Assembly: GCA_002780305.1 (NCBI GenBank)
Contig: PEVD01000019.1
Span: 1-53,874, forward strand
Direction of reading: 5' to 3'
Length of the DNA: 53,874 nucleotides
From: Candidatus Shapirobacteria bacterium CG03_land_8_20_14_0_80_40_19
GTDB taxonomy: Bacteria > Patescibacteriota > Microgenomatia > UM-FILTER-40-11
Part shown: piece by piece, positions 1,544 to 52,265 of the stretch
Layout: every line of letters starts with the position of its first letter
Position numbering within the stretch: position 1 is the stretch's first letter
Position numbers and translations under genes: made by a program
Notes under the pieces: model-generated
Told to the model about the DNA's origin: nothing
Database searches by the model: none
Seen by the model: the letters and a program-made list of their open reading frames with translations, nothing else

Positions 1544-3685
1544 TTATTTATTGTGTTTTTCTAAGGAAACTTTCAAAACCTTTTGGCGGTTTTGGTTTTT
1601 ACAGCGGGGAAGCGGCATGGTAGTTGCCAAAAATGGAGTTGAAGTCAAGTTTTCTATGCAAAGCTTCATCGCAATCTGATACATCCCTAAAGCCACCATG
1701 TCTTCTTCTTTGTAGATCTGGCCGAACTCGGAAGCCATAATTTTTGCATCCATCGAGCCGATAACGAAAGAGATTAAAGTGCCCGCATTACCGAAAATCG
1801 CTTTTTGCAGATCCTCTTCAAGTTGGCCGATATATTGGTTGGTTAAATTTAGACACAAACGGTATTTTCTTGCTTCCGAAAGAATTTTTATAAAAGCGCT
1901 GGTAGCAAAGTTTTGAAACTCATCAACATAAAGATAAAAATCTTTCCTTTGTTCTTCATTAACGTTAATCCGGTTCATCGCGGCCAGTTGAAGCTGGGTA
2001 ATAATCATCGCGCCCAGTAGGGCGGCGTTATCTTCGCCGATTTTTCCTTGTGATAAGTTAACTAAAAGGACTTTACCTGAATCCATAATATCTTCCAGAT
2101 CAACGGATGATTTATGTTGGCCGATTATGCCCCGGATGGTCGGTGAAGAAACAAACTGGCCGACTTTGTTTAAAATCGGCGAAATGGCTTCATTGCGCAG
2201 ATTTTCCGACATTTTTTCAAATTCGTTGCGCCAAAAACTGACTAAAGTTGGATCTTGCAGGCTGTCAACAATTTTTTTTCTAAAATTGCTATTGGTCAGC
2301 AAATCAGGGACCTGAACTAAAGTGGGAGTTGGTGTTTCAAGCAGAGTTAAAATCGTATTTCTCAAAATATGTTCCAAGCGGGGACCCCAGGAATAATAAT
2401 AGAGTTTGTAAAAAATAGCCACAATATTTGAAGCAATCAGTTCTTTGTGGGCCGGGTTTTTTACTTCTAACGGGTTAAGAGTGAAAGGGTGGTTGGTATC
2501 AGACGGATCAAGATAGCAGACCTCGTTTATGCGATATGAAGGAATATAATCAAGCAATATTTCCGTTAAATCGCCGTGCGGATCAATAACCGCCAAGCCT
2601 TCACGGTTGCGCAGATCATTAATCGCCATATTGGCAATAAGAGTTGATTTACCGGTGCCGGTTTTCCCGATAATATAAATGTGTCTTCGGCGGTCGTTTT
2701 TCTTAATGCCGAAAGTGGCAATTTTGTTTTTATATTCTGTTCGGGCAATAAAGTTAATTTCCTGTTTGTCAGCGTCATCAAGTCCTTCGGCTGTCGGCAG
2801 GTTTTGGGGCGGTTCGGAAGCGATAATCCGGCCCCAGGTAATATTTTTTATTCCGGCAAGCAGGGCAGAAGGCGGGTGCCATAAAGAAGCCAATTCGTCC
2901 ACATTTAATATTTGGTATTTTGGAACATGTTTGAAGGTCCGGTTTTTAATTGACTGAATAAACTTTTTTTCAAAAAAACGGCCGGGCTTTTTTAGTTTTA
3001 AACTGTTTACTTCGCTTTGAAAGGCGGAAAAAGAGGAGGCAAGGCTGGAAAGAAGCGGTTCGGAATTGGAAATTAGTCTAATGGCAGTCCAAAAACCGGC
3101 GCCTGAAAGTTTTTCGGTTATGTATTTTGCCTGAGGATGAGGAGAGGTTTTTCCTTCTTCAGCCGGGATGCCTTTGTCAATTATTTTTTGGGCGGAACTT
3201 TGCCATCCGCCGGCATTGGCAATAAGCAGTTGCATAATCATAATGTCACTTGGTCTGGTCTTGGACATTATCCCTAAGATTGAAGACATTAAATCAGCTT
3301 CTTTAATCTCGCGGAAAGTTTTTAAAGGTAAAAAATAATTTTTGGCAAGCTCAATTTGGCCAAGATAAAGACTGTTTTGTGTTTGCATCCAGCTAGAAAG
3401 ATAATCTTTAGGCAAAAAACTAAGAAGCGACTCCGGATATTGGGCGGAAATCTGGCTTTCAACAAAAGAAGTTTTGTCTTTTGGACAGACAATTAAAAAA
3501 TGAATCTGCTGTTGTAAACAGGCAATTTCAAAGCTGATAGACTCCGGTGGACGGCGGGAGAAAAGCGGATTTTTGGCCAGATTGGAAAAAGCGGTAAAAA
3601 GCTGAGCCGCGGCTTCGGGCGTTTTTTCGCAGGAGCGGGGAACCCGAATTTCAATTAAAGAGAATGGGAGGGTTTTGTCAATCAT
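1544..3685 (-). CDS. VirD4/TraD/TraG-like type IV coupling-protein-family ATPase with a long novel N-terminal region
   Basis: Walker A IIGKTGTGKST and Walker B LYVDEFQNF. The C-terminal part resembles the TraD/TraG coupling-protein fold. The first ~330 aa have no transmembrane helix and no motif I recognise. Confidence 0.7.
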   Translation of the reverse strand: MIDKTLPFSLIEIRVPRSCEKTPEAAAQLFTAFSNLAKNPLFSRRPPESISFEIACLQQQIHFLIVCPKDKTSFVESQISAQYPESLLSFLPKDYLSSWMQTQNSLYLGQIELAKNYFLPLKTFREIKEADLMSSILGIMSKTRPSDIMIMQLLIANAGGWQSSAQKIIDKGIPAEEGKTSPHPQAKYITEKLSGAGFWTAIRLISNSEPLLSSLASSFSAFQSEVNSLKLKKPGRFFEKKFIQSIKNRTFKHVPKYQILNVDELASLWHPPSALLAGIKNITWGRIIASEPPQNLPTAEGLDDADKQEINFIARTEYKNKIATFGIKKNDRRRHIYIIGKTGTGKSTLIANMAINDLRNREGLAVIDPHGDLTEILLDYIPSYRINEVCYLDPSDTNHPFTLNPLEVKNPAHKELIASNIVAIFYKLYYYSWGPRLEHILRNTILTLLETPTPTLVQVPDLLTNSNFRKKIVDSLQDPTLVSFWRNEFEKMSENLRNEAISPILNKVGQFVSSPTIRGIIGQHKSSVDLEDIMDSGKVLLVNLSQGKIGEDNAALLGAMIITQLQLAAMNRINVNEEQRKDFYLYVDEFQNFATSAFIKILSEARKYRLCLNLTNQYIGQLEEDLQKAIFGNAGTLISFVIGSMDAKIMASEFGQIYKEEDMVALGMYQIAMKLCIENLTSTPFLATTMPLPRCKNQNRQKVLKVSLEKHNK

Positions 3686-5858: not shown

Positions 5859-6408
5859 CATTTGAATTTAGAGAAAAGTTCTAGGGCTTAGAATTTTTTC
5901 CTGAATTCAAGCGGAGCGAAAGCGACGCGCGGTTTAGGGATTGCTTCGAGGTTTCTGCTTCTCCAAATGCGGAGCAGCAGGGGAATCAAGCGATCGTACT
6001 TTAAAAAGGCATCACTAAGATAAATATACGGTCTACAGACTACTGACTACTGACTACAGCTTTCCTTGAAAAATCAAGCAAGCCAGACCATGGGAATAAC
6101 AAATTCTAAATTCTAAGCACCAAATCCCTGCCCGAAATGTTTCGCATATCGAAGCAGGCGGGCGAAATAAATCCAAATATTCAAAATTCAAATAAAAAAA
6201 GGAGTTAGATAATTTGCTGTTTTTATTTTGAAAATTGTTTAGGGTTTAGAATTTAGAGTTTAGAGTTTTGTTTCCGTAGTCTGGTTTGTTTGAGAAAGAA
6301 AATTCAAGGAGGCTGACCTCCTTTTTAAGATAAAGTGTCGATTCGCCAACGACCCAAGGCAAATTCGCCAAGGGCGTCTAGTTTTTTCTGTGCCTAAGGA
6401 GGCAAAAG

Positions 6409-8754: not shown

Positions 8755-9971
8755 TCAGCACCTTTCCGCCAAAGGGTACATTATATAACCATTCTTCCAG
8801 TGCTGTTGCCGGATATACTAAAAACACTCTTGTTTGGGCGAATGAGCCGGATAAAAATTTCTCCTTTACTGTTTTAGCGGATATCTTGGATTCGGAAGAA
8901 GAATACGAAGATAACGACATAAAAGTAAAAAGAATTTGGAAAAGAAATTCTTTCTCGCTTTTTTCTTCTATTTATAACGAAATAGTACAAAATAAAGATA
9001 TTAGAAAAATCTTCTTTGCTTTCGAATGGGCAATGTTTGGTTCCAAGAAGTATTTAATGGGGTTTTTGCCAATACTTTTGCTTTTATTAAGACTGCAAGG
9101 AAAAAAAATTTATTTTGTTTCTCACGGTGTACTGTTAAATGCCGGCCTGGTTTCGATCCAAATGGGGGTAAGGGAAAATAGTTTAAAGGCAAAAATTTGG
9201 AGTCTTGGACTTAAAATACTTTATTTTTTTATTATTCTTTTATCTGATAAAGTCGTTGTTTTTGAGGAGTATTTAAGACAAGAACTCTTAAAATTGATCC
9301 CAAATTCAAGCAAGATATTGACAATTAATCACGGAGTGGAAACTAAAACAGACAGCAGTCTATCAAAGAAAAAAACGGACGAATTTGCGGTACAAAGTTT
9401 TGGGTTTTTAATTTGGTATAAAGGTTCAGATTGGCTGGTGGAAGAAATGGCAAACTATTTCAAAAACAATCCCAATTCAAAAATTAGACTGACAATGGTG
9501 GGAGGGGCTACTAAAACTTATACAGACCTTAATTATAAAAATTATATTGACAAGATTTACGATACAGCGGAAAAATCAGACGGAAAAGTTCAAATTACCG
9601 GATTTATCAAAGAAAAGGAAATTGCTGATTATTTTCAAAAGGCTGACCTTTTTATACTTCCGTATCGGGTATTAGTGTCTGCCAGTGGACCGCTTTCTTT
9701 AGCTTTTACTTATAGAAAACCATTTTTAATTTCCGAAAATTTAAAAGGTTACTGCTTGTCTAATGATTTTTCCCAGTCTTTAACCCAAACAGGACTATCG
9801 ATAAAAGATTTAGTTTTTTCTATGAGCGGAAATGGTTTACCCAATAAGATTGAAAACCTGATAAAGGATAATAATATGCTTGAAAAAATTCAAAGGTTTT
9901 CGGAACTGATGTACGAAAAGAGAAAATGGCCGGTAATTGGTAAAAAATATGCCGATGTTTTAAGCAAATGA
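8733..9971 (+). CDS. GT-B fold glycosyltransferase (GT4/group 1-like)
   Basis: 412 aa. The C-terminal half has the GT1/GT4 pattern (VGG...GFI..EE...YF..ADLFILPY). Overlaps both neighbours, so it looks operonic. Confidence 0.7.
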   Translation: MAEKILVISTFPPKGTLYNHSSSAVAGYTKNTLVWANEPDKNFSFTVLADILDSEEEYEDNDIKVKRIWKRNSFSLFSSIYNEIVQNKDIRKIFFAFEWAMFGSKKYLMGFLPILLLLLRLQGKKIYFVSHGVLLNAGLVSIQMGVRENSLKAKIWSLGLKILYFFIILLSDKVVVFEEYLRQELLKLIPNSSKILTINHGVETKTDSSLSKKKTDEFAVQSFGFLIWYKGSDWLVEEMANYFKNNPNSKIRLTMVGGATKTYTDLNYKNYIDKIYDTAEKSDGKVQITGFIKEKEIADYFQKADLFILPYRVLVSASGPLSLAFTYRKPFLISENLKGYCLSNDFSQSLTQTGLSIKDLVFSMSGNGLPNKIENLIKDNNMLEKIQRFSELMYEKRKWPVIGKKYADVLSK

Positions 9972-12900
9972 AAAAGATAAAGCAACTAATTATAAAAAAT
10001 TGGTCAGTCATTGCGATTGTCATTATTTGGTTTGGGATTGTTTTAACTAATTTTTCTCCAAATACTTTTCTTTCCGGTTGGGATAATTTACATTCCGAAT
10101 TTAATTTTTCCATTAATTTAAAGAGAGCTTTGTTTGCTTCCTGGCAGGAATACCAAGGACTGGGGTTACTTGGGGGTATGGGGCACGGGGCGGATTTGTT
10201 CAGACAAATTTTACTTTGGATTTCTTCTTTAGTTTTGCCGGTAAACTTTATCCGGTATTTTTTTCATTTTTCTATGCTTTTGTCTGGTTCTTTGGGCATT
10301 TATTTTTTGCTGAAAGATTTTGTTTTAGAAAAATACAGCGAGTTTGGTAAAAAATGGGGGGCCTTGGCTGGGGCGATTTTTTATTTGTTTAATTTAGGGA
10401 CATTACAAAGTTTTTATCTTGCATGGGAAGCTTTTTCTGTTCATTTTGGATTTTTACCGTGGTTGTTTTGGGGAGTATTTAAATACTTAAGAGAGCCTTC
10501 TAAAAAGAATTTACTAATATTTGTATTGATTAATATTTTGGCGGTCAGTCAAGGTTATGTGGCAACAGTGTTTTTAGTTTATGTAATGGCTTTAGGGTTA
10601 GTGTTAGCGGGGTATGTTGCGCTTGGTCATTCTGGGGAGGAACGAAGCGACGACTCCAGAATCCGATTCTGGATGCGTCCCGTTACGGCGGGACTTACCA
10701 GAATGACGAGAAAGGTTTTAATTATTTTTTTAATAATATTTTGTGTTAATGCTTTTTGGCTGGTGCCGAATTTGTATTTTGTTTTTAATGATGTCGGGAC
10801 CAATACTGGTGCGAAAATGAATTTAATGGCAACCGAGGATAACCTTTTAAGAAATAAAGAATATGGCGATTTTAAGAATTCTGCATTGCTGAAAGGCTTT
10901 TGGTTTGAAAATGTCGAATTGCAAAATAATGGTTCTACTGATTACATAATGGGTGATTGGGTAAACCATTTTCAAAACCCATATTTTTCAGGAATTGGTT
11001 ATATGCTTTTTGGTTTATCTGTTTTAGGAATAATTTTCAGCCTAACAACAAAGAATAAAAAAGCGCTTGTGTTCTTGCCTGTATTACTTCTTGCATTTAC
11101 ATTTTTAGCCAACGATACTATTGGTTTTTTTTCTTTGAATAAGATTTTATATAAACTTCCTCTTTTTTCCCAGATTTTCCGGTTTCCGTTTACCAAGTTT
11201 TCAATATTAACCGCCTTTTGTCTGGCGGTATTTTATGGGGTTTTTATATCGGTAATTTTAAGCTGTTTCCGTCATTCTGGGGAGGAACGAAGCGACGACT
11301 CCAGAATCCGATTCTGGATGCGCTCTTCGCCAGTTGGCGGATCGCTTACCAGAATGACGATAATATTATTTTTTATTTTATTGCCTATTATTTTTCTTTA
11401 TCCAATTTTTCAAGGCAAATTATTTTATGTTAAGGAAAAAGCAAAAATTCCGGCGGAATATTTTTTGGTTTTTGATTTCTTTAAAAATCAGGATAAGAAT
11501 ACACGGATTGCTAATTTTCCTCAGCCGACTTTTTGGGGCTGGACAAATTATAACTGGGGGAACCAGCTGTACAGCGGATCAGGCTTTTTGTGGTATGGGA
11601 TAAAGCAGCCGATTTTGGACCGCGCTTTTGATGTCTGGTCAAAACAAAATGAAAATTACTATTGGGAAATTTCGTATGCTTTGTATTCTAAAAACAGAGA
11701 GCTTTTTGAAAATATTTTGGAAAAATATCAAGTCAATTGGTTGTTGGTGGACGGGAATGTGATTAATCCGGGAGCGGAAAAGGCTTTGTTTTTGGAGGAA
11801 TTGGAAAAACTGCTTATGGCTGACAGCTCACAGCTTACAGCAAACAGCAACAAGCAATCAGCTATAAGCTATAAGCAGAAACTTGAACTGGTGCAGACTT
11901 TCGGCAAAATAAAGATTTATAAAATTAATTTGGAAACAGGAGTTAATGATTTTGTGTGGTTGGGAGAGAATTTGCCAGTTATAAATTCTTATGAATGGGG
12001 AAATTACGACAGAGCGTATGGTGAGATTGGGAATTACATTTCAATTGACCGTCATTCTGGGGAGGATCCGCCATTTGGCGGAGACGACTCCAGAATCGAT
12101 GTTGGACAAGCCAGCATGACAGAAGAAGTTTATTACCCTTTCCGTTCGGTTTTTACCGGCCGGAAAACTGATGAGCTTGATATAGAAATTGAGGATTTGG
12201 GGGACAGAATTGTTTTTAAAGCTCCTTTACCTGATGGGTTTGAAAACTATTTGATTGAACTGCCAAAAGATTATGACGGGAAAGAGTTGGTGGAGGTTGA
12301 TCCGGGAAGCTTTGAAACTAAGTATTTTTTACCAACTATTGATTCTGACGGACAAACACTTTCGGTTGTCTTTCCGAAAATAAAAGGTTTGCTTTCTGCT
12401 GAAATTAATCCCTCTAAGCAAAATCTTCAGGCTATAAACTGTAATCAATTTAGTCAAGGACAAGTTGGTCTTGAAAATATGCAGGGACTGGTTAGGTTGC
12501 AGGCGCAGGATGCCACTAATTGCGGGGCGAGTTTTTATCTGCCGGATTTATCACATAAATATGCTTATTTAATTTCTGCAGAAGCAAAGAATATTTCCGG
12601 CAAGCCGCTTCTTTTTTGGCTGGAAAATTTGACCAACCGAAAAGCGGATTTAGAAGCCTATTTGAGTAAAGAACTAGATGCTGAACGCTATACACTAAAC
12701 GCTGATTATTTTGTTCAACCCCCGATGGCGGATGACGGACTTGGGTATACCTTACATTTTGATAATATTTCAATCGGCCGGCAGGAGTCGATAAACGAGC
12801 TGGGGAAGATTTCCGTACTTCCGATTCCGTATAATTTTTTAACTTCGTTAAAATTAACTCAAATCTCAAATCTCAAATCTCAAAACCAAAACGCAAAATT

Positions 12901-13228
12901 AAAAGCTAATTCCCTTTTAATCAGTCATCCTAATCCATCACTTTATAAAGTTCAAATTAATGGAGAAATTAGGTCAAACGAAATTTTGATTTTGTCGCAA
13001 TCTTACCATTCAGGTTGGCTGGCTTTTAATCTTGACACAAAAAGAATAATCAAAGACCATTTTGTGGTTAACAATTGGTCTAATGGGTGGATATTGCTCG
13101 CTAACACCCAACCACTATTACCTAACACCTATATTTTATTTTTCTGGCCGCAATATTTGCAGTATCTGGGATTTGGATTTTATTTGATTATTTTGCTTTT
13201 TTGGCTGCGCGCTAAATCAAGAAAATAA
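9968..13228 (+). CDS. large polytopic membrane protein, GT-C-like glycosyltransferase candidate (AftD/DUF3367-like N-terminus)
   Basis: 1086 aa with more than 10 N-terminal TM helices and a large soluble C-terminal region ending in a TM helix. Follows GT2 and GT4 genes in an overlapping operon. Carries three in-frame repeat insertions. Confidence 0.6.
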   Translation: MKKIKQLIIKNWSVIAIVIIWFGIVLTNFSPNTFLSGWDNLHSEFNFSINLKRALFASWQEYQGLGLLGGMGHGADLFRQILLWISSLVLPVNFIRYFFHFSMLLSGSLGIYFLLKDFVLEKYSEFGKKWGALAGAIFYLFNLGTLQSFYLAWEAFSVHFGFLPWLFWGVFKYLREPSKKNLLIFVLINILAVSQGYVATVFLVYVMALGLVLAGYVALGHSGEERSDDSRIRFWMRPVTAGLTRMTRKVLIIFLIIFCVNAFWLVPNLYFVFNDVGTNTGAKMNLMATEDNLLRNKEYGDFKNSALLKGFWFENVELQNNGSTDYIMGDWVNHFQNPYFSGIGYMLFGLSVLGIIFSLTTKNKKALVFLPVLLLAFTFLANDTIGFFSLNKILYKLPLFSQIFRFPFTKFSILTAFCLAVFYGVFISVILSCFRHSGEERSDDSRIRFWMRSSPVGGSLTRMTIILFFILLPIIFLYPIFQGKLFYVKEKAKIPAEYFLVFDFFKNQDKNTRIANFPQPTFWGWTNYNWGNQLYSGSGFLWYGIKQPILDRAFDVWSKQNENYYWEISYALYSKNRELFENILEKYQVNWLLVDGNVINPGAEKALFLEELEKLLMADSSQLTANSNKQSAISYKQKLELVQTFGKIKIYKINLETGVNDFVWLGENLPVINSYEWGNYDRAYGEIGNYISIDRHSGEDPPFGGDDSRIDVGQASMTEEVYYPFRSVFTGRKTDELDIEIEDLGDRIVFKAPLPDGFENYLIELPKDYDGKELVEVDPGSFETKYFLPTIDSDGQTLSVVFPKIKGLLSAEINPSKQNLQAINCNQFSQGQVGLENMQGLVRLQAQDATNCGASFYLPDLSHKYAYLISAEAKNISGKPLLFWLENLTNRKADLEAYLSKELDAERYTLNADYFVQPPMADDGLGYTLHFDNISIGRQESINELGKISVLPIPYNFLTSLKLTQISNLKSQNQNAKLKANSLLISHPNPSLYKVQINGEIRSNEILILSQSYHSGWLAFNLDTKRIIKDHFVVNNWSNGWILLANTQPLLPNTYILFFWPQYLQYLGFGFYLIILLFWLRAKSRK
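10626..10707. repeat. in-frame palindromic repeat, family 1, copy 1
   Basis: GTCATTCTGGGGAGGAACGAAGCGACGACTCCAGAATCCGATTCTGGATGCG...TACCAGAATGAC; translates as HSGEERSDDSRIRFWMR...TRMT. Confidence 0.7.
11271..11358. repeat. in-frame palindromic repeat, family 1, copy 2
   Basis: First 52 nt are identical to copy 1. The inner hairpin differs (CGCCAGTTGGCG), and the terminal TACCAGAATGAC is the same. Confidence 0.7.
11821..11878. repeat. in-frame low-complexity ACAGC/AGCTATA oligo-repeat tract
   Basis: TGACAGCTCACAGCTTACAGCAAACAGCAACAAGCAATCAGCTATAAGCTATAAGCAG translates as ADSSQLTANSNKQSAISYKQ. It shares its vocabulary with the intergenic ACAGACTACTGACTACTGACTACAGC at 6033-6060. Confidence 0.5.
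12051..12120. repeat. in-frame palindromic repeat, family 1, copy 3 (diverged)
   Basis: GTCATTCTGGGGAGGATCCGCCATTTGGCGGAGACGACTCCAGAATCGATGTTGGACAAGCCAGCATGAC; same reading phase as copies 1 and 2. Confidence 0.6.
12858..12897. repeat. in-frame tandem heptamer tract (CTCAAAT x3.5)
   Basis: CTCAAATCTCAAATCTCAAATCTCAAAACCAAAACGCAAAA translates as QISNLKSQNQNAK. Confidence 0.5.
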
Positions 13229-13842
13229 GCCACCATTTTTTCTTTGTCAAAAGGAACAAGCATTTTGGGATAATCAAAAAGACCTTTAATCATTATCAGT
13301 CTTGTTCCAAGATAAAGAGGGTCAGCCACCCAATCATATTTAATTCTAAGACCTTTTAATATATCTTCAAAATTAAATTCTTTCGTGTTTTTTAAAATAA
13401 GATATAGATCTATAAAATCTCTAGCCTTTTCTCTTGAGAGGATCGTGTCAATTTTATTAACGGCAATATCAAACAGATTATCAATTTCTAAGTCGTTATA
13501 TTTCTTATCTTTTTTTGTTCTTTCAAAAGCCCAAAAATTAAAATCAGTTTTAAGTTTCTCCGTTTTTCCTTTTTTAAGAAAAAAAATTTTTGCTGTGATT
13601 CCTTGTTGGTAATCAACAACATTTACACCGATCTTTTTAAAAATAGGTTTAATATATGAAGCTAACATTTGATAATCAATTTCGTTAGCAGAAAAAAAAT
13701 CTAAATCTTCGGAGAGACGGTGCTGGAAATAGAATTCGGATAAGGCGGTGCCACCGCTTAAGTAAAAATTATCGGTAATAAATTTGTTTTTACTTAAGAC
13801 ATCAAGTACTTCTTTTTGAAACTCGGTTAAAATGCTTTTCAT
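13180..13842 (-). CDS. AbiEii/AbiGii-family nucleotidyltransferase toxin (type IV TA / abortive infection)
   Basis: LSGGTALSEFYFQHRLSEDLDFFS is the hallmark GGTAL..HR.S.DLDF motif. ATG 13842 lies 2 nt after the upstream stop. The 3' end overlaps the convergent 9968..13228 gene by about 49 nt. Confidence 0.8.
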   Translation of the reverse strand: MKSILTEFQKEVLDVLSKNKFITDNFYLSGGTALSEFYFQHRLSEDLDFFSANEIDYQMLASYIKPIFKKIGVNVVDYQQGITAKIFFLKKGKTEKLKTDFNFWAFERTKKDKKYNDLEIDNLFDIAVNKIDTILSREKARDFIDLYLILKNTKEFNFEDILKGLRIKYDWVADPLYLGTRLIMIKGLFDYPKMLVPFDKEKMVAYFLDLARSQKSKIIK

Positions 13843-13844
13843 TG

Positions 13845-14066
13845 TCAACAAAGAATATATTCTTCGATATATTTGACTTTTAAGTTTCCTTCAACTTGAT
13901 GTTTTATTTTCGGCCAATAATGGCGAAGTTTTTTTAAATCCAATTTTTCTCCATCTAAGCCGTAATTTATCAGCTGTAAAAGTCTCCATCTTTCGTACTC
14001 CTCCGGAAACTGTTTTAAATAATCTTCATCGGTTGACCAATTGTACATAGGGCTATTATAACTCAT
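13845..14066 (-). CDS. small partner protein of the AbiEii-like toxin (putative antitoxin, not a full AbiEi)
   Basis: 73 aa, immediately upstream of the toxin and nearly abutting it. WRLLQLINYGLDGEKLDLKKLRHYW resembles the short helical proteins often found upstream of AbiEii genes. Confidence 0.45.
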   Translation of the reverse strand: MSYNSPMYNWSTDEDYLKQFPEEYERWRLLQLINYGLDGEKLDLKKLRHYWPKIKHQVEGNLKVKYIEEYILC

Positions 14067-14107: not shown

Positions 14108-15295
14108 ATGACTTTTTTGGTATTTATATTAATTCTCTCGGTTTTAGTTTTAGTCCACGAAACAGGGCATTTTTTAGCGGCTAAAAAAGCCGGCATTAAG
14201 GTGGAAGAATTTGCTTTTGGACTGCCGTTTACCAAACCGATTTTAAGCAAAAAGAAAAGGGGGACGATTTATTCGGTTTATCCTTTGATTTTTGGCGGAT
14301 TTGTAAAATTATATGGAGAAGACGGTTTAACGGAAGATCAAAGACCAAAGATCCCGCCTTGCCGGCGGGCAGGCAAAGATCCAAACTATGGACGAGCGTA
14401 TTTTGAGAAGTCAATTTTTAAACGGGCTTCGGTTTTACTGGCGGGGGTGTTTATGAATTTAGTTTTGGCCATTGTTTGTTTTTCGATTTTGTATTTTGTT
14501 TGGGGAATTCCGACCAAAACCGGTAAAGTAATTGTGGAAGCGGTGAGAGAAAATTCGCCGGCGCAAGCCGCCGAAATAAAGCCGAACGATTGGATTGTGG
14601 CGGTTAATGGTGATTTTATTAATGAAGGTGACCAACTTATTAAAATTACTCAAGGAATGGCCGGCCAAAAAGTAAAGCTGGAAATTTCCCGAAGAAATGA
14701 TAATCCATGCAAACCGCCGGCAGACAATGTTCTTGGCGGGATGGCAACGACTGAATTCGGATTTAATTGTAACGGAGAAAATTTATTAATTTTTTTAATT
14801 CCAAGGGAAAATCCGCCGGCAGGGGAAGGACCCCTGGGAGTGATTATTACCGACAGTATTTTTAAGAAATACCCTTTTTATATTATGCCGTTTTTAGGCG
14901 TAAGAGAGGGATTCAAGGATTCTTTAGGTTGGGGGAAAATGGTCTTAAGTTCGCTTGGCCAGATGGTTTATAGTTTAATTACCAGGGGAAAAGTGCCGGA
15001 GGGAATTGCCGGTCCGATAGGTATATATCAAATTACCGGGGAAGCGGCTAAGGCCGGCTGGATGGCAGTTTTACAATTGCTGGGAATTATTTCAGTGAAT
15101 TTGGCGATTGTAAATATTTTGCCAATTCCGGCCATGGATGGAGGAAGACTGGTTTTTTTAGGATTTGAGCTGGTTTTTAAGAGAAAAGCACCGCCCAAAA
15201 TTGAGGCGGCAATTAACAGCGTTGGCCTGATGATTTTATTGGGATTAATGTTTCTGATTACCGTTAAAGATTTATTAAGACTGGCGGGTGGGTAA
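14108..15295 (+). CDS. rseP: RseP/M50-family site-2 metalloprotease with PDZ domain
   Basis: HETGHFLAAK (HExxH) in TM1, a PDZ-like middle region (SPAQAAEIKPNDWIVAVNG), and C-terminal NLAIVNILPIPAMDGGRL (LDG motif). Confidence 0.85.
   Translation: MTFLVFILILSVLVLVHETGHFLAAKKAGIKVEEFAFGLPFTKPILSKKKRGTIYSVYPLIFGGFVKLYGEDGLTEDQRPKIPPCRRAGKDPNYGRAYFEKSIFKRASVLLAGVFMNLVLAIVCFSILYFVWGIPTKTGKVIVEAVRENSPAQAAEIKPNDWIVAVNGDFINEGDQLIKITQGMAGQKVKLEISRRNDNPCKPPADNVLGGMATTEFGFNCNGENLLIFLIPRENPPAGEGPLGVIITDSIFKKYPFYIMPFLGVREGFKDSLGWGKMVLSSLGQMVYSLITRGKVPEGIAGPIGIYQITGEAAKAGWMAVLQLLGIISVNLAIVNILPIPAMDGGRLVFLGFELVFKRKAPPKIEAAINSVGLMILLGLMFLITVKDLLRLAGG
14336..14392. repeat. in-frame palindromic repeat, family 2, RseP copy
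   Basis: GATCAAAGACCAAAGATCCCGCCTTGCCGGCGGGCAGGCAAAGATCCAAACTATGG is near-identical in architecture to 34930-34986. Translates as EDQRPKIPPCRRAGKDPNYG. Confidence 0.65.
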
Positions 15296-19411: not shown

Positions 19412-20053
19412 ATGCAGATTCCAAGAGCGATTTCAAATTTAGTTGAGGCTTTTGAAAAGTTGCCCGGCATCGGACCGAAAACCGCCCAAAGGCTGACTTT
19501 TTATTTACTCCATGTTCCCCAGGAAATGCTCGAAGAATTTGCCTCTTCCCTGCAGAATCTTAAAAAAAATACCGTTTTATGTTCAATTTGTTTTAATGTG
19601 GCTGAGCATGATCCCTGTCTGCTTTGTTCCGACCGGAACCGCGATCATAGTATGATTTGCGTCGTGGAACAACCGCTGGATGTTTTGGCTCTTGACCGGA
19701 ACGGGCACTACAAGGGGGTTTATCATGTCCTGCACGGGGCAATTTCACCCCTGAACAATATCGGGCCGGATGATATTAAAATAAAAGAATTATTAGATAG
19801 AGTTTCAGAGACGCCCGCCGATTCGGCGGGTTTCAAAGTTTCAGAAATCATTTTAGCGACTAACTCCAATATGGAGGGTGAGGCTACGGCAATGTATATC
19901 GCGAAAGAACTACAAAGATGCAAAGATATAGAGAAGCAGAGTTTCAAAGTTACGCGGTTGGCGCATGGGTTGCCCGTTGGCGGGGATGTGGAATATGCCG
20001 ATGAAGTAACTCTCCAAAGAGCTTTGGAGGGCCGGCGAGAGTATGGGGTATAA
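19412..20053 (+). CDS. recR: recombination protein RecR
   Basis: LPGIGPKTAQRL helix-hairpin-helix, a C4 zinc finger (CSICFNV...CLLC), and a Toprim region. Confidence 0.9.
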   Translation: MQIPRAISNLVEAFEKLPGIGPKTAQRLTFYLLHVPQEMLEEFASSLQNLKKNTVLCSICFNVAEHDPCLLCSDRNRDHSMICVVEQPLDVLALDRNGHYKGVYHVLHGAISPLNNIGPDDIKIKELLDRVSETPADSAGFKVSEIILATNSNMEGEATAMYIAKELQRCKDIEKQSFKVTRLAHGLPVGGDVEYADEVTLQRALEGRREYGV

Positions 20054-20156
20054 TAATTTAAAATTAATTTTAAAAAGAAACGAATTTTTAATGTTTAAAA
20101 ATTAAATAATTTAGATTTGATTAAAAATTTGAAATTAAAAATTAAAAATTAAGTTT

Positions 20157-22791: not shown

Positions 22792-23697
22792 TTAAAGATT
22801 TCCCCCGTAAACAAAAGCCAGTCCCTGTTTCTGTCCGATCTCTTTGGCTTTCATTATTGTTTTAATTGGAGTGGGCGGAGTATCGGTCATTCTTGCATGC
22901 GGAAAAAAGCGGGTGACGTGCCAGGGGGTTTGGGAGCCTAAATTTTTGACAATCCAGGCAGCAATATTTTTCAGGTCTTTTTCGTCATCGTTCCAGCCGG
23001 GGATAATATTGGTGACGCATTCGATGTGAATTTTAGGATATTTATCATGAACGTACTTGGTGGTGTCAAAAACTCCTTTTGCCCGAGGAATACCGATTAA
23101 TTTTTGATAAAAGTTATCAGATGGGCTTTTTAAATCAACCCGGTAAATATCCAGATACGGGGCAATAACATCAATAGCCTGAGTGGTGGCATAGCCGTTG
23201 GTGACCCAACAGGTATACATATCGAAATTTCTAGTTTCTAATTTCAAATTTCTAATTTCTTTACAACAATCCAAAGAGTATTCAAGCCATATTGCCGGTT
23301 CGTTATAGGTAAAAGCAATGCCGTCCGCTTTAAGTTTTATGGCCATTTTCACTACCTGCGCCGGAGACAGATATTTTTCGTTTTTTAAGTTTAGAAGCGA
23401 GCAGTCGACATAGCTGATTTCGGAGTTTTGGCAAAATTGGCAGCGGAAATTACAACCATAGGTTCCCAGAGAAAGGCACATCGAGCCGGGCCGGAAACGG
23501 TAAACCGGTTTTTTCTCAATCGGATCAAGATTAATGGAGGAGACAATGCCGTAAATTGAGGAATATAACCGGCCGTCTTTATTAATCCTGGTTTGACAAA
23601 ACCCCCAGCCGTTGTTTTCCACCACGCATTTTTTTTGGCAGGTTAAACAACGGACGGATTTATTTTTAAGTTTTTGGTAAAGAAGAGCTTCATGCAT
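22792..23697 (-). CDS. AmmeMemoRadiSam-system radical SAM enzyme (AmrS-like)
   Basis: CNFRCQFCQN cluster motif, N-terminal Cys-rich region (CLTCQKKC...CQTR), and VTNGY. ATG 23697 (MHEALLYQ) is preferred over the track start at 23733. Confidence 0.8.
   Translation of the reverse strand: MHEALLYQKLKNKSVRCLTCQKKCVVENNGWGFCQTRINKDGRLYSSIYGIVSSINLDPIEKKPVYRFRPGSMCLSLGTYGCNFRCQFCQNSEISYVDCSLLNLKNEKYLSPAQVVKMAIKLKADGIAFTYNEPAIWLEYSLDCCKEIRNLKLETRNFDMYTCWVTNGYATTQAIDVIAPYLDIYRVDLKSPSDNFYQKLIGIPRAKGVFDTTKYVHDKYPKIHIECVTNIIPGWNDDEKDLKNIAAWIVKNLGSQTPWHVTRFFPHARMTDTPPTPIKTIMKAKEIGQKQGLAFVYGGNL
23224..23259. repeat. in-frame low-complexity TTCTAA/GAAATT oligo-repeat inside the radical SAM gene
   Basis: GAAATTTCTAGTTTCTAATTTCAAATTTCTAATTTC translates on the minus strand as EIRNLKLETRNF. 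The same vocabulary forms the intergenic hairpins at 3786-3810 and 6100-6270. Confidence 0.5.
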
Positions 23698-34165: not shown

Positions 34166-35458
34166 ATGAAAATCATACTTAAACAAATAAGGAAAACGGT
34201 TGTTTTTCTTTTTTTTATAGTTCTTTCAGGAGGAGTTGGTTATTCTTTGGGCCAAAAAAAGATCTCCTTTTCCCTAAATCAAAGCCGCAATTTTCCCCAA
34301 GTCACGATCGAAAGAGTTTTGCCGACGGATAAACAAGGAAAAGTTGATTTTTCTTTATTTTGGCAGGTTTGGGATAAGCTGGAAGAAAAACATTTAAACC
34401 GCAAGGATTTTAACTATGAAAAAATGGTTTACGGGGCAATTTCCGGATTAACTTCTTCATTGGACGACCCTTATACGTTTTTTTTACCCCCGGTGGAAAA
34501 CAAAGAGACAAAAGATGACCTGAGGGGTGATTTTGAGGGTGTGGGGATTCAGATTGGCTATAATAAAGATAAACAACTGGCGGTGATTGCCCCTCTTTCC
34601 GGAACTCCCGCTGAATCGGCGGGCCTTAAACCAGGCGATGTAATTACCAAAATTATTGATCAGTCTAACAATGTTGACAAAGAAACCTTTGATATCACAC
34701 TTCCGGAAGCGGTTCGGTTAATCAGAGGAAAAAAAGGATCAGAAGTAACCTTGTCGATTTTCCGTGAGGGGAAAGACAAAGTTTTTGACGTGACCTTGAA
34801 AAGAGACACGATTGTAGTAAAAAGTGTCGAGGTCAGTTTTGTGGAGAACATAAATAAAAGGGTGGCGGTTTTAAAACTTTCAAGATTTGGGGAGAGGACC
34901 GATGAAGAATGGGAGCAGGCGGTGGCAGAGATCAAAGATCAAAGATCAAACCTGCCTGCCGGCAAGGCAGGGATCAAAAACTATGGAGGAATTGTTTTGG
35001 ATCTGAGAAATAATCCGGGCGGTTTTTTACAGGGATCGGTTTTTATCTGCAGCGAATTTCTTGGTTCAGGGGTAATTGTTCAACAGGACAGCGGTGTTAA
35101 CGGGAAAGAGATTTATCAGGTTGACCGGAGGGGTTCTTTACTGACCGATCCGCTGGTGGTTTTGATAAACGGTGGATCAGCCTCTGCCTCAGAAATAGTT
35201 GCCGGGGCTTTACAAGATGCCAAAAGAGCAAAAATTGTCGGGGAAAAATCTTTCGGCAAGGGAACGGTCCAGGAAGCGGAAGATTTGACCAATGGAGCGG
35301 GGTTGCATATCACTGTTTCCCGCTGGCTGCTACCGTCAGGCCGATCGATTGATAAGGAGGGAATTACTCCCGACATAGAAATAAAAGTTCCGGAAGAAGA
35401 AACGGACGATACTAAAGATTTGCAACTGGAGAAAGCGATTGAAATTTTGACAAAATAA
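34166..35458 (+). CDS. S41-family carboxyl-terminal processing protease
   Basis: N-terminal anchor, PDZ (GTPAESAGLKPGDVITKI), LDLRNNPGG, catalytic GGSASASEI, and SFGKGTVQ. Confidence 0.88.
   Translation: MKIILKQIRKTVVFLFFIVLSGGVGYSLGQKKISFSLNQSRNFPQVTIERVLPTDKQGKVDFSLFWQVWDKLEEKHLNRKDFNYEKMVYGAISGLTSSLDDPYTFFLPPVENKETKDDLRGDFEGVGIQIGYNKDKQLAVIAPLSGTPAESAGLKPGDVITKIIDQSNNVDKETFDITLPEAVRLIRGKKGSEVTLSIFREGKDKVFDVTLKRDTIVVKSVEVSFVENINKRVAVLKLSRFGERTDEEWEQAVAEIKDQRSNLPAGKAGIKNYGGIVLDLRNNPGGFLQGSVFICSEFLGSGVIVQQDSGVNGKEIYQVDRRGSLLTDPLVVLINGGSASASEIVAGALQDAKRAKIVGEKSFGKGTVQEAEDLTNGAGLHITVSRWLLPSGRSIDKEGITPDIEIKVPEEETDDTKDLQLEKAIEILTK
34930..34986. repeat. in-frame palindromic repeat, family 2, S41 protease copy
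   Basis: GATCAAAGATCAAAGATCAAACCTGCCTGCCGGCAAGGCAGGGATCAAAAACTATGG translates as KDQRSNLPAGKAGIKNYG, immediately before GIVLDLRNNPGG. Confidence 0.65.
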
Positions 35459-40136: not shown

Positions 40137-40832
40137 TTAGGGAAGCAGGAAGACTGTTTTGGCCAGGGGGATTTTACCCTCCGCCGTTTCCGGGTAAACA
40201 ATTATCATTTTTTGCCCTACTTTAAAATCGCTGAATTTTAGAACAACTTTTTGGTCTTTTTGGTTGACCAAGTAAGAAGTCTTGTCAATTTTTACCTGAA
40301 AAGTTTGAAAAGAAAGGGTGAAAGTCTTGCTGTTGGCTTCGGTAATCGTGCCGTAAAAGATTAGTTTTTTGGCTGGAATTGTTTTCGGCGGGGCGATAAC
40401 GGTGATTCTTTGAGCCTCGAGAGTTTCGTTTGCATCCGGTTCGCCCAGAGCGATGATTTTATCGTCTAAGGCCAAATCTTTCGTTAAGATTTCTTTTTTG
40501 TTTGTTCCGACAATAACGGTATCATCAATAATCCTGACCCTTTGTTTACCGCGGAAATTGGTCAACGTTAGGGTTGAATCGGTAATTTCCAAAATATTTC
40601 CGACATAAGCCTTTTTCTCAATTTTTTCTTTTATTTCCGTCAGCTGGTCTTTGATCGCCTGTCTTATTTCTAAGACTTTTTCTTCTTCCGGTCCGGTTGG
40701 CCCGCCCTGAATCGCCGAAGGCGAGGCAGGAGCGATAGTCGCCGAAGGGGAAGCGGTTGGAGTGGCCGCCATAACAGGGGAATAAAAAATAAAAAATAAA
40801 AGATAAAAAATTATAATTCGAGTTTTGTTCAT
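40137..40832 (-). CDS. secreted hypothetical protein
   Basis: Signal peptide (LLFFIFYSPVMA) and an Ala/Pro/Ser linker, followed by beta-rich repeats. Overlaps the upstream gene, so it looks operonic. Confidence 0.5.
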   Translation of the reverse strand: MNKTRIIIFYLLFFIFYSPVMAATPTASPSATIAPASPSAIQGGPTGPEEEKVLEIRQAIKDQLTEIKEKIEKKAYVGNILEITDSTLTLTNFRGKQRVRIIDDTVIVGTNKKEILTKDLALDDKIIALGEPDANETLEAQRITVIAPPKTIPAKKLIFYGTITEANSKTFTLSFQTFQVKIDKTSYLVNQKDQKVVLKFSDFKVGQKMIIVYPETAEGKIPLAKTVFLLP

Positions 40833-52011: not shown

Positions 52012-52265
52012 TCACAATTTACAATTTTCAATTTATTTTTTTTGTTCCCGCTGTCGGTGAAAAGGGGAGAGGGAGTGGTAAAAATTCCAATTAACAAGAA
52101 TCCTATAGTAACACTATATACAATTTTTCACAGAGTTTTGAATATTTTTCACGATTTAGCAAGAAATATGGTTGACTGCCAAAATGATAATGTAACAAAA
52201 ATGATAGAAAATGAGGCTGTTTTTTAGTTGTTTGATATAGTTTGATAATATTTTAAATTACCCCC

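Follow-up and report, generated by a model that had tools for sequence, protein, structure and literature searches.

Why do two unrelated protease genes of one bacterium carry, in frame, much the same short piece of palindrome-bearing DNA? The question is raised by contig PEVD01000019.1 of Candidatus Shapirobacteria bacterium CG03_land_8_20_14_0_80_40_19, analyzed here over its whole length of 53,874 nt (hereafter the window), which is a chromosome segment of a Microgenomates (Patescibacteria) bacterium with a GC content of 40%. In a first-pass annotation, made from the letters alone, the genes of an RseP-type site-2 protease and of an S41 (CtpA-type) protease had been noted to share a unit of ~57 nt, with a GC-rich palindrome at its center and short direct repeats on either side. 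Our answer is that a non-autonomous hairpin element, tiny at 21 nt and here named PAL, has probably inserted independently into each of the two genes.

Results

Comparison of the two protease loci

Both segments were found exactly where the first-pass annotation had placed them, inside the forward-strand open reading frames (ORFs) of the two proteases and with the translations given there, EDQRPKIPPCRRAGKDPNYG in RseP and KDQRSNLPAGKAGIKNYG in S41 (coordinates in Table 1). A repeat search of the window grouped the pair as family D11 (51 nt, 75% identity, ungapped), and a gapped local alignment of the two extends from AGATCAAAGA to CTATGGA. Whole-segment similarity is marginal when the window is compared with itself by blastn (E ~0.06), but when the palindrome is left out, the flanks (22 nt to its left and right) reach a score of 28, and none of 39,861 random pairs of window positions scored as high (maximum 22). 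The resemblance is therefore real and lies at the nucleotide level, as had been claimed, but what moves would be the 21-nt hairpin and not the ~57-nt unit. The supposed common architecture likewise holds for the flanks, which match in direct orientation, and not for the cores, which align best inverted, with GATCCC-GCCTTGCCGGCGGGCAGG on the + strand of RseP matching GATCCCTGCCTTGCCGGCAGGCAGG on the - strand of S41 in 23 of 25 letters. Being inverted in one gene relative to the other, the core is read as different peptides, PPCRRAG in RseP and LPAGKAG in S41; together with the absence of the segment from the nearest homologs of both genes, this bears out the proposal of a DNA- or RNA-level element and led us to reject a shared protein domain or motif.

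PAL itself, CCTGCCTGCCGGCAAGGCAGG, is a GC-rich quasi-palindrome of 21 nt, i.e. seven codons, that is free of stops in all six reading frames and is predicted to fold into a 7-bp stem (CCUGCCU/AGGCAGG) with a 7-nt loop (GCCGGCA) at -11.8 kcal/mol. Across 120 homologs of the S41 protease the segment is present in only two, and the three closest relatives (87% identical) read KDQ[KR]SK-------IKNYGG where the window has KDQRSNLPAGKAGIKNYGG, the KNYGG/KNFGG motif being kept across orthologs. In the DNA of one of these relatives (L001) the empty site reads CAG ATC AAA GAT CAA AGA TCA AAG ATC AAA AAC TAC, whereas the window reads ...TCA AA[C CTG CCT GCC GGC AAG GCA GG]G ATC AAA AAC TAT; aligned by heptamers, the filled site is ...GATCAAA[21 nt]GATCAAAAAC and the empty one ...GATCAAAGATCAAAAAC, so that the two differ by exactly CCTGCCTGCCGGCAAGGCAGG. 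Four GATCAAA units stand in each allele, and the left part of the array, which encodes a DQRSKIK-type peptide, is also found at the empty orthologous site; the flanks are therefore a native heptanucleotide tandem array and not, as had been suggested, target-site duplications (TSDs), nothing having been duplicated here or in the filled and empty pairs from Bacteroidota described below. In a more distant S41 gene (L003, 56% identical), this loop holds the same 21-mer, letter for letter, between GATACAAA units.

The RseP copy lies in a loop, between YGEDG and GRAYFEKS, that is hypervariable in all 60 homologs, and PPCRRAG occurs only in the query and its 99% identical twin (P0001), the segment being missing in 59 of the 60 closest homologs. 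On the - strand the copy reads CCTGCCCGCCGGCAAGGCGGG, with two substitutions relative to the canonical form (T7C and A19G), and on the + strand CCCGCCTTGCCGGCGGGCAGG, encoding PPCRRAG; it is predicted to fold with a 6-bp stem (CCCGCC/GGCGGG). It is 4 nt out of register with the heptamer units. Compared with a 76% identical ortholog (L002; GAA AAT CAA AAT TTT GGG), the window is longer by 42 nt, which, judging from this single ortholog, would comprise the 21-nt inverted core and 21 nt in the form of three added GAYCAAA heptamers. The notion that T7C and A19G are a compensatory pair, restoring a C-G pair in the 6-bp register, was dropped as an argument: in a survey of metagenome variants positions 7 and 19 were CG in six cases, GG in six and AG in two, with no excess of complementary pairs, and as G19 goes equally with C7, G7 and A7, covariation does not speak for a selected structure.

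Might the ~57-nt block, i.e. array, hairpin and AACTATGG, have moved whole, by ectopic gene conversion or a template switch from S41 to RseP or from a third array source, followed by a template switch within the palindrome that turned the hairpin round, and by drift of the copy? The flank test, in which the hairpin plays no part, is in keeping with such a patch, and at both loci an identical AAC TAT GGA comes after four GAYCAAA units, at a point where orthologs differ synonymously (AAC TAC GGG in L001, AAT TTT GGG in L002); moreover, GATCAAA is used by just two of the ~15 heptamer arrays of the window, and these two alone carry PAL. A block moved whole fits poorly, however, with the opposite orientation of the hairpin and its 4-nt shift in register. 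It is also at odds with the S41 gene of L001, where the array stands without the hairpin and the two are thus separable, and with an RseP ortholog (P0005) whose flanks read E-N-Q ... N-F-G even though it lacks both array and hairpin; GATCAA and AAYTWTGG thus look native to RseP. We consider a transfer of the block unlikely, and favor two independent insertions of PAL, which fit the differing orientation, register and age of the copies.

Both inserts map to low-confidence surface loops in AlphaFold models (mean pLDDT, the predicted local distance difference test, 85/88 for the two models) and to the columns that vary most between orthologs; each loop is coil flanked by elements predicted with confidence. 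The RseP insert, for which a structure prediction had been proposed as a check, forms a predicted loop at residues 71-90 (pLDDT 66 and 54) between a strand (64-68) and a helix (103-132), and that of S41, at residues 261-270 (pLDDT 66), comes right after the helix of residues 245-262. The same loops in other lineages hold different palindrome-like inserts (GPSSSRKSGALEGQ, SLQLTANGKERSAIS, SLPANSAG, CNPPAGGAKC and STLRLRSGQE; homologs P0003, P0004, P0006, P0015, P0028, P0130, P0135, P0165 and P0173), and insertion into them has thus recurred, by hairpins of more than one family. In other Microgenomates the RseP and S41 loops also contain peptides of similar, heptamer-derived kind (NPKSQIP, KFKVQSS, TEDRGQ and KYKIQNT).

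Distribution of PAL in other genomes

One genome per species was scanned for CCTGCCYGCCGGCAAGGCRGG, with about one chance match expected overall, and at least 120 species genomes match. At least seven bacterial phyla share the 21-mer unchanged, at loci that mostly have 30-50% GC and for which far less than one match would be expected by chance, and besides the two in the window there are at least 240 PAL loci elsewhere, at unrelated sites. Among the matches listed, about 30 carriers are Bacteroidota, including cultured ones (Arenibacter, Marinoscillum furvescens DSM 4134, Aequorivita vladivostokensis, Hyunsoonleella flava, Croceitalea), about 20 are Patescibacteria of many classes, and others belong to Omnitrophota, Ignavibacteriota, Planctomycetota (including Scalindua), Nitrospirota, Spirochaetia and low-GC Gammaproteobacteria, the last as metagenome-assembled genomes (MAGs); no cyanobacterium is among the 120 matches listed. 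Variant copies are common in metagenomes. In full-text searches of the literature, no mention of the 21-mer, of its peptides or of the phenomenon came up.

This recurrence bears on two simpler accounts of the pair in the window. The first is that two GC-rich palindromes arose separately in AT-rich, low-complexity linkers coding for Lys, Asp and Gln; the blastn value for the pair would allow it, variants of the 21-mer do occur as ordinary coding sequence in high-GC contigs, and the loose pattern CCTGCC-N8-GGCAGG is not rare in shuffled sequence (it also missed both window copies, because their spacer is 9 nt). Such convergence, to which we give almost no credence, is already contradicted by the exact 21-mer in at least 120 mostly low-GC genomes, by the clean presence or absence of 21 nt and by the flank test. 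The second is that a hairpin-forming oligonucleotide or chimeric reads entered the contigs, in line with a sequence that is identical everywhere and carriers that are mostly MAGs. That, too, is very hard to credit: independent ENA and JGI assemblies contain the same alleles (RseP, P0001, 99%; S41, P0121, 100%), the 21-mer is present in assemblies of cultured strains, diverged variants exist, and the strong reading-frame bias and the purine rule given below are biological signatures. We know of no adaptor sequence that matches the 21-mer.

For 123 copies (the listed scan matches and that of L003; 120 of them canonical) surroundings and reading frames were analyzed. The base at position -1 is a purine in 111 of 120 (93%), the two bases after PAL are GA in 25% and AA in 14%, and outside heptamer arrays PAL has no flanking direct repeat. 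Fourteen of the 120 (~12%) lie within period-7 arrays (one of period 8), compared with 0.04-0.4% of control positions. The heptamers hosting PAL elsewhere include GAAATTG, GATTTCG, GACTTTG and GAAAGTG, with more such cases among variant copies, and this variety removes the suggested link of GATC to methylation or restriction, as GATC is merely part of the local heptamer GATCAAA. An origin of the heptamer arrays as footprints of TSDs, i.e. cycles of insertion, excision and re-insertion leaving 7 bp each, fits only RseP and was rejected because empty and filled S41 sites have equal numbers of units, because RecR (which holds another hairpin, see below) has no extra units and because most copies have no flanking repeat.

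More than half of the copies (67 of 123) lie inside open frames of at least 150 amino acids, where sense outnumbers antisense by 47 to 20. All six frames are used, the Cys-free LPAGKAG frame accounting for 38 of the 67, and the four Cys-containing frames are depleted. The sense bias and the extreme conservation of the 21-mer across phyla might be taken as signs that the hairpin is kept for a function in cis, such as stopping antisense transcription, stabilizing mRNA, pausing the ribosome or polymerase, or binding a host protein, in which case its spread would reflect selection for that function; both window copies do look terminator-like on the antisense strand, where the hairpin is followed by a T-rich TTTGATC array. 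Across the family, however, T-rich tails follow PAL in 17% and 8.5% of cases against ~15% at random positions (153 copies with low-GC flanks), and an intrinsic terminator was accordingly rejected. Presence among orthologs is also sporadic (two of 120 for S41; query and twin for RseP), unlike that of a needed function, the frame bias follows more simply from selection against Cys- and Arg-rich frames, and there is neither covariation nor an Rfam match at the RseP or S41 site (Rfam matched nothing at its gathering threshold in the array-rich intergenic region listed in Table 1, either). We regard a cis function as improbable.

Exact insertion is also observed in Bacteroidota. In genes for DUF6090-like proteins, a filled locus (L083, CTCTCTGA[PAL]AAATAAATTC) and an empty one (L085) differ by exactly 21 nt without a TSD, as do a filled gene of L102 and its empty paralog in the same locus, in both pairs between GA and AA. 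PAL stands at the same codon (between LLxE and N) in the N-terminal region of DUF6090-like membrane proteins of four Bacteroidota genera (L007, L083, L102, L110), and paralogs in the same loci are empty, which suggests that GA/AA in these genes is a recurrent hot spot. Elsewhere, some copies of PAL sit in the middle of other, widespread palindromic elements (L068, L030, L043, L088, L111). Self-nesting was considered and dropped as too weak, half-sites within 25 nt being found for 9.8% of copies and 4.9% of controls. Phages, similarly, were rejected as vectors: phage contigs rarely carry the 21-mer (seven viral contigs), and five of the seven are of 65-68% GC and resemble coding coincidences. 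The other two (52-55% GC) contain the same intergenic dimer (L127, 632-673; L129, 2003-2044), in which two PAL copies stand back to back in inverted orientation and form a perfect 42-nt palindrome.

Discussion

The observations above are best accommodated if PAL enters DNA as a block of exactly 21 nt, in either orientation and without TSD, with a purine directly 5' of it and often GA or AA directly 3'. Since PAL has seven codons and is stop-free in every frame, a gene that receives it gains only seven residues, and copies would persist where these are harmless, i.e. in surface loops and above all in loops coded by unstable heptanucleotide repeats, purifying selection leaving intragenic copies in loops and in benign frames. 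PAL would then be mobile at present, and selfish or neutral rather than functional. The S41 copy, canonical in sequence, would be young, and that in RseP an independent, older insertion, in opposite orientation, 4 nt off the array register and with two substitutions. The ~57-nt resemblance would arise because both landing sites are GATCAAA arrays followed by AAC TAT GG, the array being native in S41 and apparently a local threefold amplification of a native GATCAAA in RseP. Enzymes of the HUH/Y1 type move REP/RAYT (repetitive extragenic palindrome/REP-associated tyrosine transposase) and IS200/IS605 elements via single-strand hairpins. The lack of a TSD, together with a taste for structure-prone targets that expose single strands, is our reason for proposing a similar single-strand mechanism for PAL, the best guess for the mover being a trans-acting HUH/Y1-type enzyme that recognizes the single-stranded hairpin. 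Alternatively, the element might travel through an RNA intermediate, as reportedly proposed for the small dispersed repeats (SDRs) of cyanobacteria.

Several points weigh against independent insertion of such an element. The letter-for-letter identity of the 21-mer across phyla has no explanation in this model, and the phylum spread itself relies on the taxonomic labels of MAG contigs as given. The 54-kb window holds only two copies, and no transposase or reverse transcriptase is present among the 20 of its 52 ORFs that were scanned. Both window sites share AACTATGGA in addition to the heptamer, so that independent insertion needs a target preference or luck. For RseP, the best empty relative is only 76% identical, the boundaries and the three extra heptamers being deduced from this one ortholog, and T7C and A19G would be compensatory in an alternative register, although the variant survey lends this no support.

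A bolder version, which we put forward tentatively and think somewhat more apt to fail than to hold, is that PAL is an actively mobile 'nano-element', precisely copied into single-stranded or structure-prone DNA (heptamer arrays, palindrome loops) in at least seven phyla. Its driver would be universal host equipment or an unrecognized, very widely shared enzyme. If so, no mobile DNA known would be smaller than PAL or have a wider range of hosts, and PAL would generally supply essential proteins with loop insertions of seven residues and might even drive the heptamer arrays.

The closest known kind of element appears to be the SDRs of Nostocaceae, a likeness drawn from their description and not from their sequence, and PAL differs from them in being cross-phylum and largely intragenic. 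In work of 2008 attributed to Elhai and colleagues, SDR1-8 are said to be dispersed units of 21-27 nt with predicted hairpins, nested in other repeats and reportedly embedded in tandem heptameric repeats, minitransposons or HIP1, with precise presence or absence and no known transposase; compensatory mutations reportedly support SDR4-6, and a route through an RNA intermediate is said to have been proposed. PAL shares the size, the hairpin, the dispersal, the embedding in heptamer arrays, the nesting in palindromic elements resembling MITEs (miniature transposable elements with inverted repeats) and the precise presence or absence, without TSD. It departs from SDRs in the absence of covariation support (position 7/19) and in that half of its copies are read in frame as part of proteins, some of them essential. 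Moreover, the statements on SDRs in PMC4390886 and PMC5861425 describe SDR5 as inserted into HIP1 and SDRs as restricted to Nostocaceae, a single cyanobacterial family, whereas PAL is identical in at least seven phyla.

Other known repeats agree with PAL in part. Rickettsia palindromic elements (RPEs; Ogata et al. 2000) are described in PMC10969869 as in-frame selfish repeats in unrelated housekeeping genes at fold-compatible positions, which is paralleled here by palindromes in frame at loop positions of RseP, S41 and RecR. RPEs, however, measure ~100-150 bp, occur in one genus and keep a conserved peptide in a preferred frame, and with its 21 nt, many phyla and use of all six frames PAL was rejected as an RPE in spite of its in-frame insertion. 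REPs and REPINs, mobilized by RAYT (a Y1 HUH enzyme), are imperfect GC-rich palindromes of 20-40 nt without TSD (PMC3733652, PMC3116915); PAL, too, is a GC-rich palindrome without TSD, and for both the substrate is probably a hairpin of single-stranded DNA. REPs lie outside genes and are species-specific and high-copy, with a GTAG/CGTC head and a cognate RAYT, whereas PAL is half intragenic, cross-phylum and without such a head (only the purine at -1 and GA/AA at +1/+2); it was therefore not classed with them, and no RAYT was seen in the window (20 of 52 ORFs scanned). MITEs, with terminal inverted repeats, a TSD and a length of 50-500 bp, were dismissed as PAL has no TSD and only 21 nt. As to the arrays, short tandemly repeated repetitive (STRR) sequences of Calothrix and Nostoc and an excess of 7-nt simple sequence repeats in prokaryotes are on record (Mrazek et al. 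2007, summarized in PMC4679880 and PMC4692102), and period-7 arrays form the flanks of both window copies and of ~12% of all copies. The reported arrays are mostly intergenic, unlike those here, which are translated (DQRSKIK-type) and host a hairpin.

An identical 21-mer across phyla, inserted exactly in essential genes, is unexpected and testable. If our reading is right, a hairpin of 21 bases that codes for nothing of its own is entering genomes without a letter changed, those of Patescibacteria as well as those of cultured Flavobacteria, and often within essential genes, and the question becomes what copies it and what holds its sequence constant. This is open to experiment, as some carriers are in culture (Aequorivita vladivostokensis KMM 3516, Marinoscillum furvescens DSM 4134, Arenibacter, Hyunsoonleella and Croceitalea). 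The SDR phenomenon, so far deemed a peculiarity of Nostocaceae, would be extended to bacteria generally, and SDR-like insertion would be linked with the long-noted excess of heptanucleotide repeats. It would also account for many odd low-complexity peptides in MAG proteins (e.g. LPAGKAG, PALPAGR and DQRSKIK-type runs of 7-residue period), which should then be masked in alignments, phylogenies and structure prediction, and would show how surface loops of conserved enzymes are remodeled in reduced genomes.

Other repeats and genes in the window

This genome tolerates many small repeats inside genes, of which the hairpins of RseP and S41 are one instance. Period-7 arrays make up 15 of the 46 rows reported for the window by Tandem Repeats Finder (TRF), and several are translated in frame as peptides of 7-residue period (SSQLTANSNKQSAISYKQK, QISNLKSQNQN). 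Positions of all features are given in Table 1.

Table 1. Positions of repeats and genes in the window
Feature	Position	Strand	Remarks
TrwB/VirD4-like type IV coupling protein	1544-3685	-	
Intergenic region with heptamer arrays	5900-6300		Four different arrays: CTACTGA, AAATTCT, AAATTCA, GTTTAGA
PAL-like split hairpin	~6127-6165		CCCTGCCCG, 20 nt, CAGGCGGGCG; between AAATTCT and AAATTCA arrays
Period-7 arrays (examples)	6033-6268, 11819-11876, 12856-12898, 20120-20152, 23226-23260, 40781-40811, 52014-52035		
Membrane-protein ORF	9968-13228		1086 aa; upstream of RseP
Nested-hairpin elements, 82-88 nt	10626-10707, 11271-11358, 12051-12106		Peptide RHSGEERSDDSRIRFWMR...LTRMT; not in L002 ortholog
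AbiEii nucleotidyltransferase toxin	13180-13851	-	Overlaps end of membrane-protein ORF by ~50 nt
RseP-type site-2 protease ORF	14108-15295	+	
RseP segment	14336-14391	+	
Degenerate heptamer array left of RseP hairpin	14336..14352	+	GATCAAA GACCAAA GAT
Diverged PAL in RseP	14353..14373	-	T7C and A19G; inverted alignment
CAAA GATCCAAA C TATGG	14374..14391	+	Array remainder, then probably native NYG, before conserved RAYFEKS
RecR ORF	19412-20053		
Different 21-nt GC hairpin ACGCCCGCCGATTCGGCGGGT	19811..19831	+	TPADSAG; in frame in RecR Toprim domain
S41 (CtpA-type) protease ORF	34166-35458	+	
S41 segment	34930-34986	+	
(GATCAAA)x3 array left of S41 hairpin	34930..34950	+	TRF: period 7, 3.1 copies, 100% matches
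Canonical PAL in S41	34951..34971	+	LPAGKAG in frame; exact 21-nt insertion vs L001/P0124
Fourth GATCAAA unit right of S41 hairpin	34972..34978	+	Then native AAC TAT GGA GGA (NYGG)
Partial nested-hairpin element	41741-41764		In metallo-beta-lactamase-fold gene
DnaB helicase	41977-44595		Split by intein

The hairpin in recR has an architecture like that of PAL and belongs to another sequence family. It adds exactly seven residues relative to the solved RecR structure 3VDP, and its flanks are quasi-repeats of GTTTCAGA type, GTTTCAGAG and TTCAAAGTTTCAGAA; further on, around RCKDIEKQSF, RecR has another insertion of six residues. The large membrane protein has four lineage-specific in-frame insertions relative to its L002 ortholog, of which three are nested-hairpin elements with GTCATTCTGG...CCAGAATGAC as their ends and the fourth consists of successive heptamer arrays. 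Related repeats of GTCATTGCGAG/GTCATTCYGAG type occur in loci of many phyla, and some host a central PAL (the five nested cases named above).

The genes around these repeats include housekeeping ones (DnaX, RecR, CysRS, RuvB, YchF, SSB, HtrA, HisRS, DnaB and TGT), among which the type IV coupling protein and the AbiEii toxin lie. The intein that splits DnaB carries a LAGLIDADG homing-endonuclease domain.

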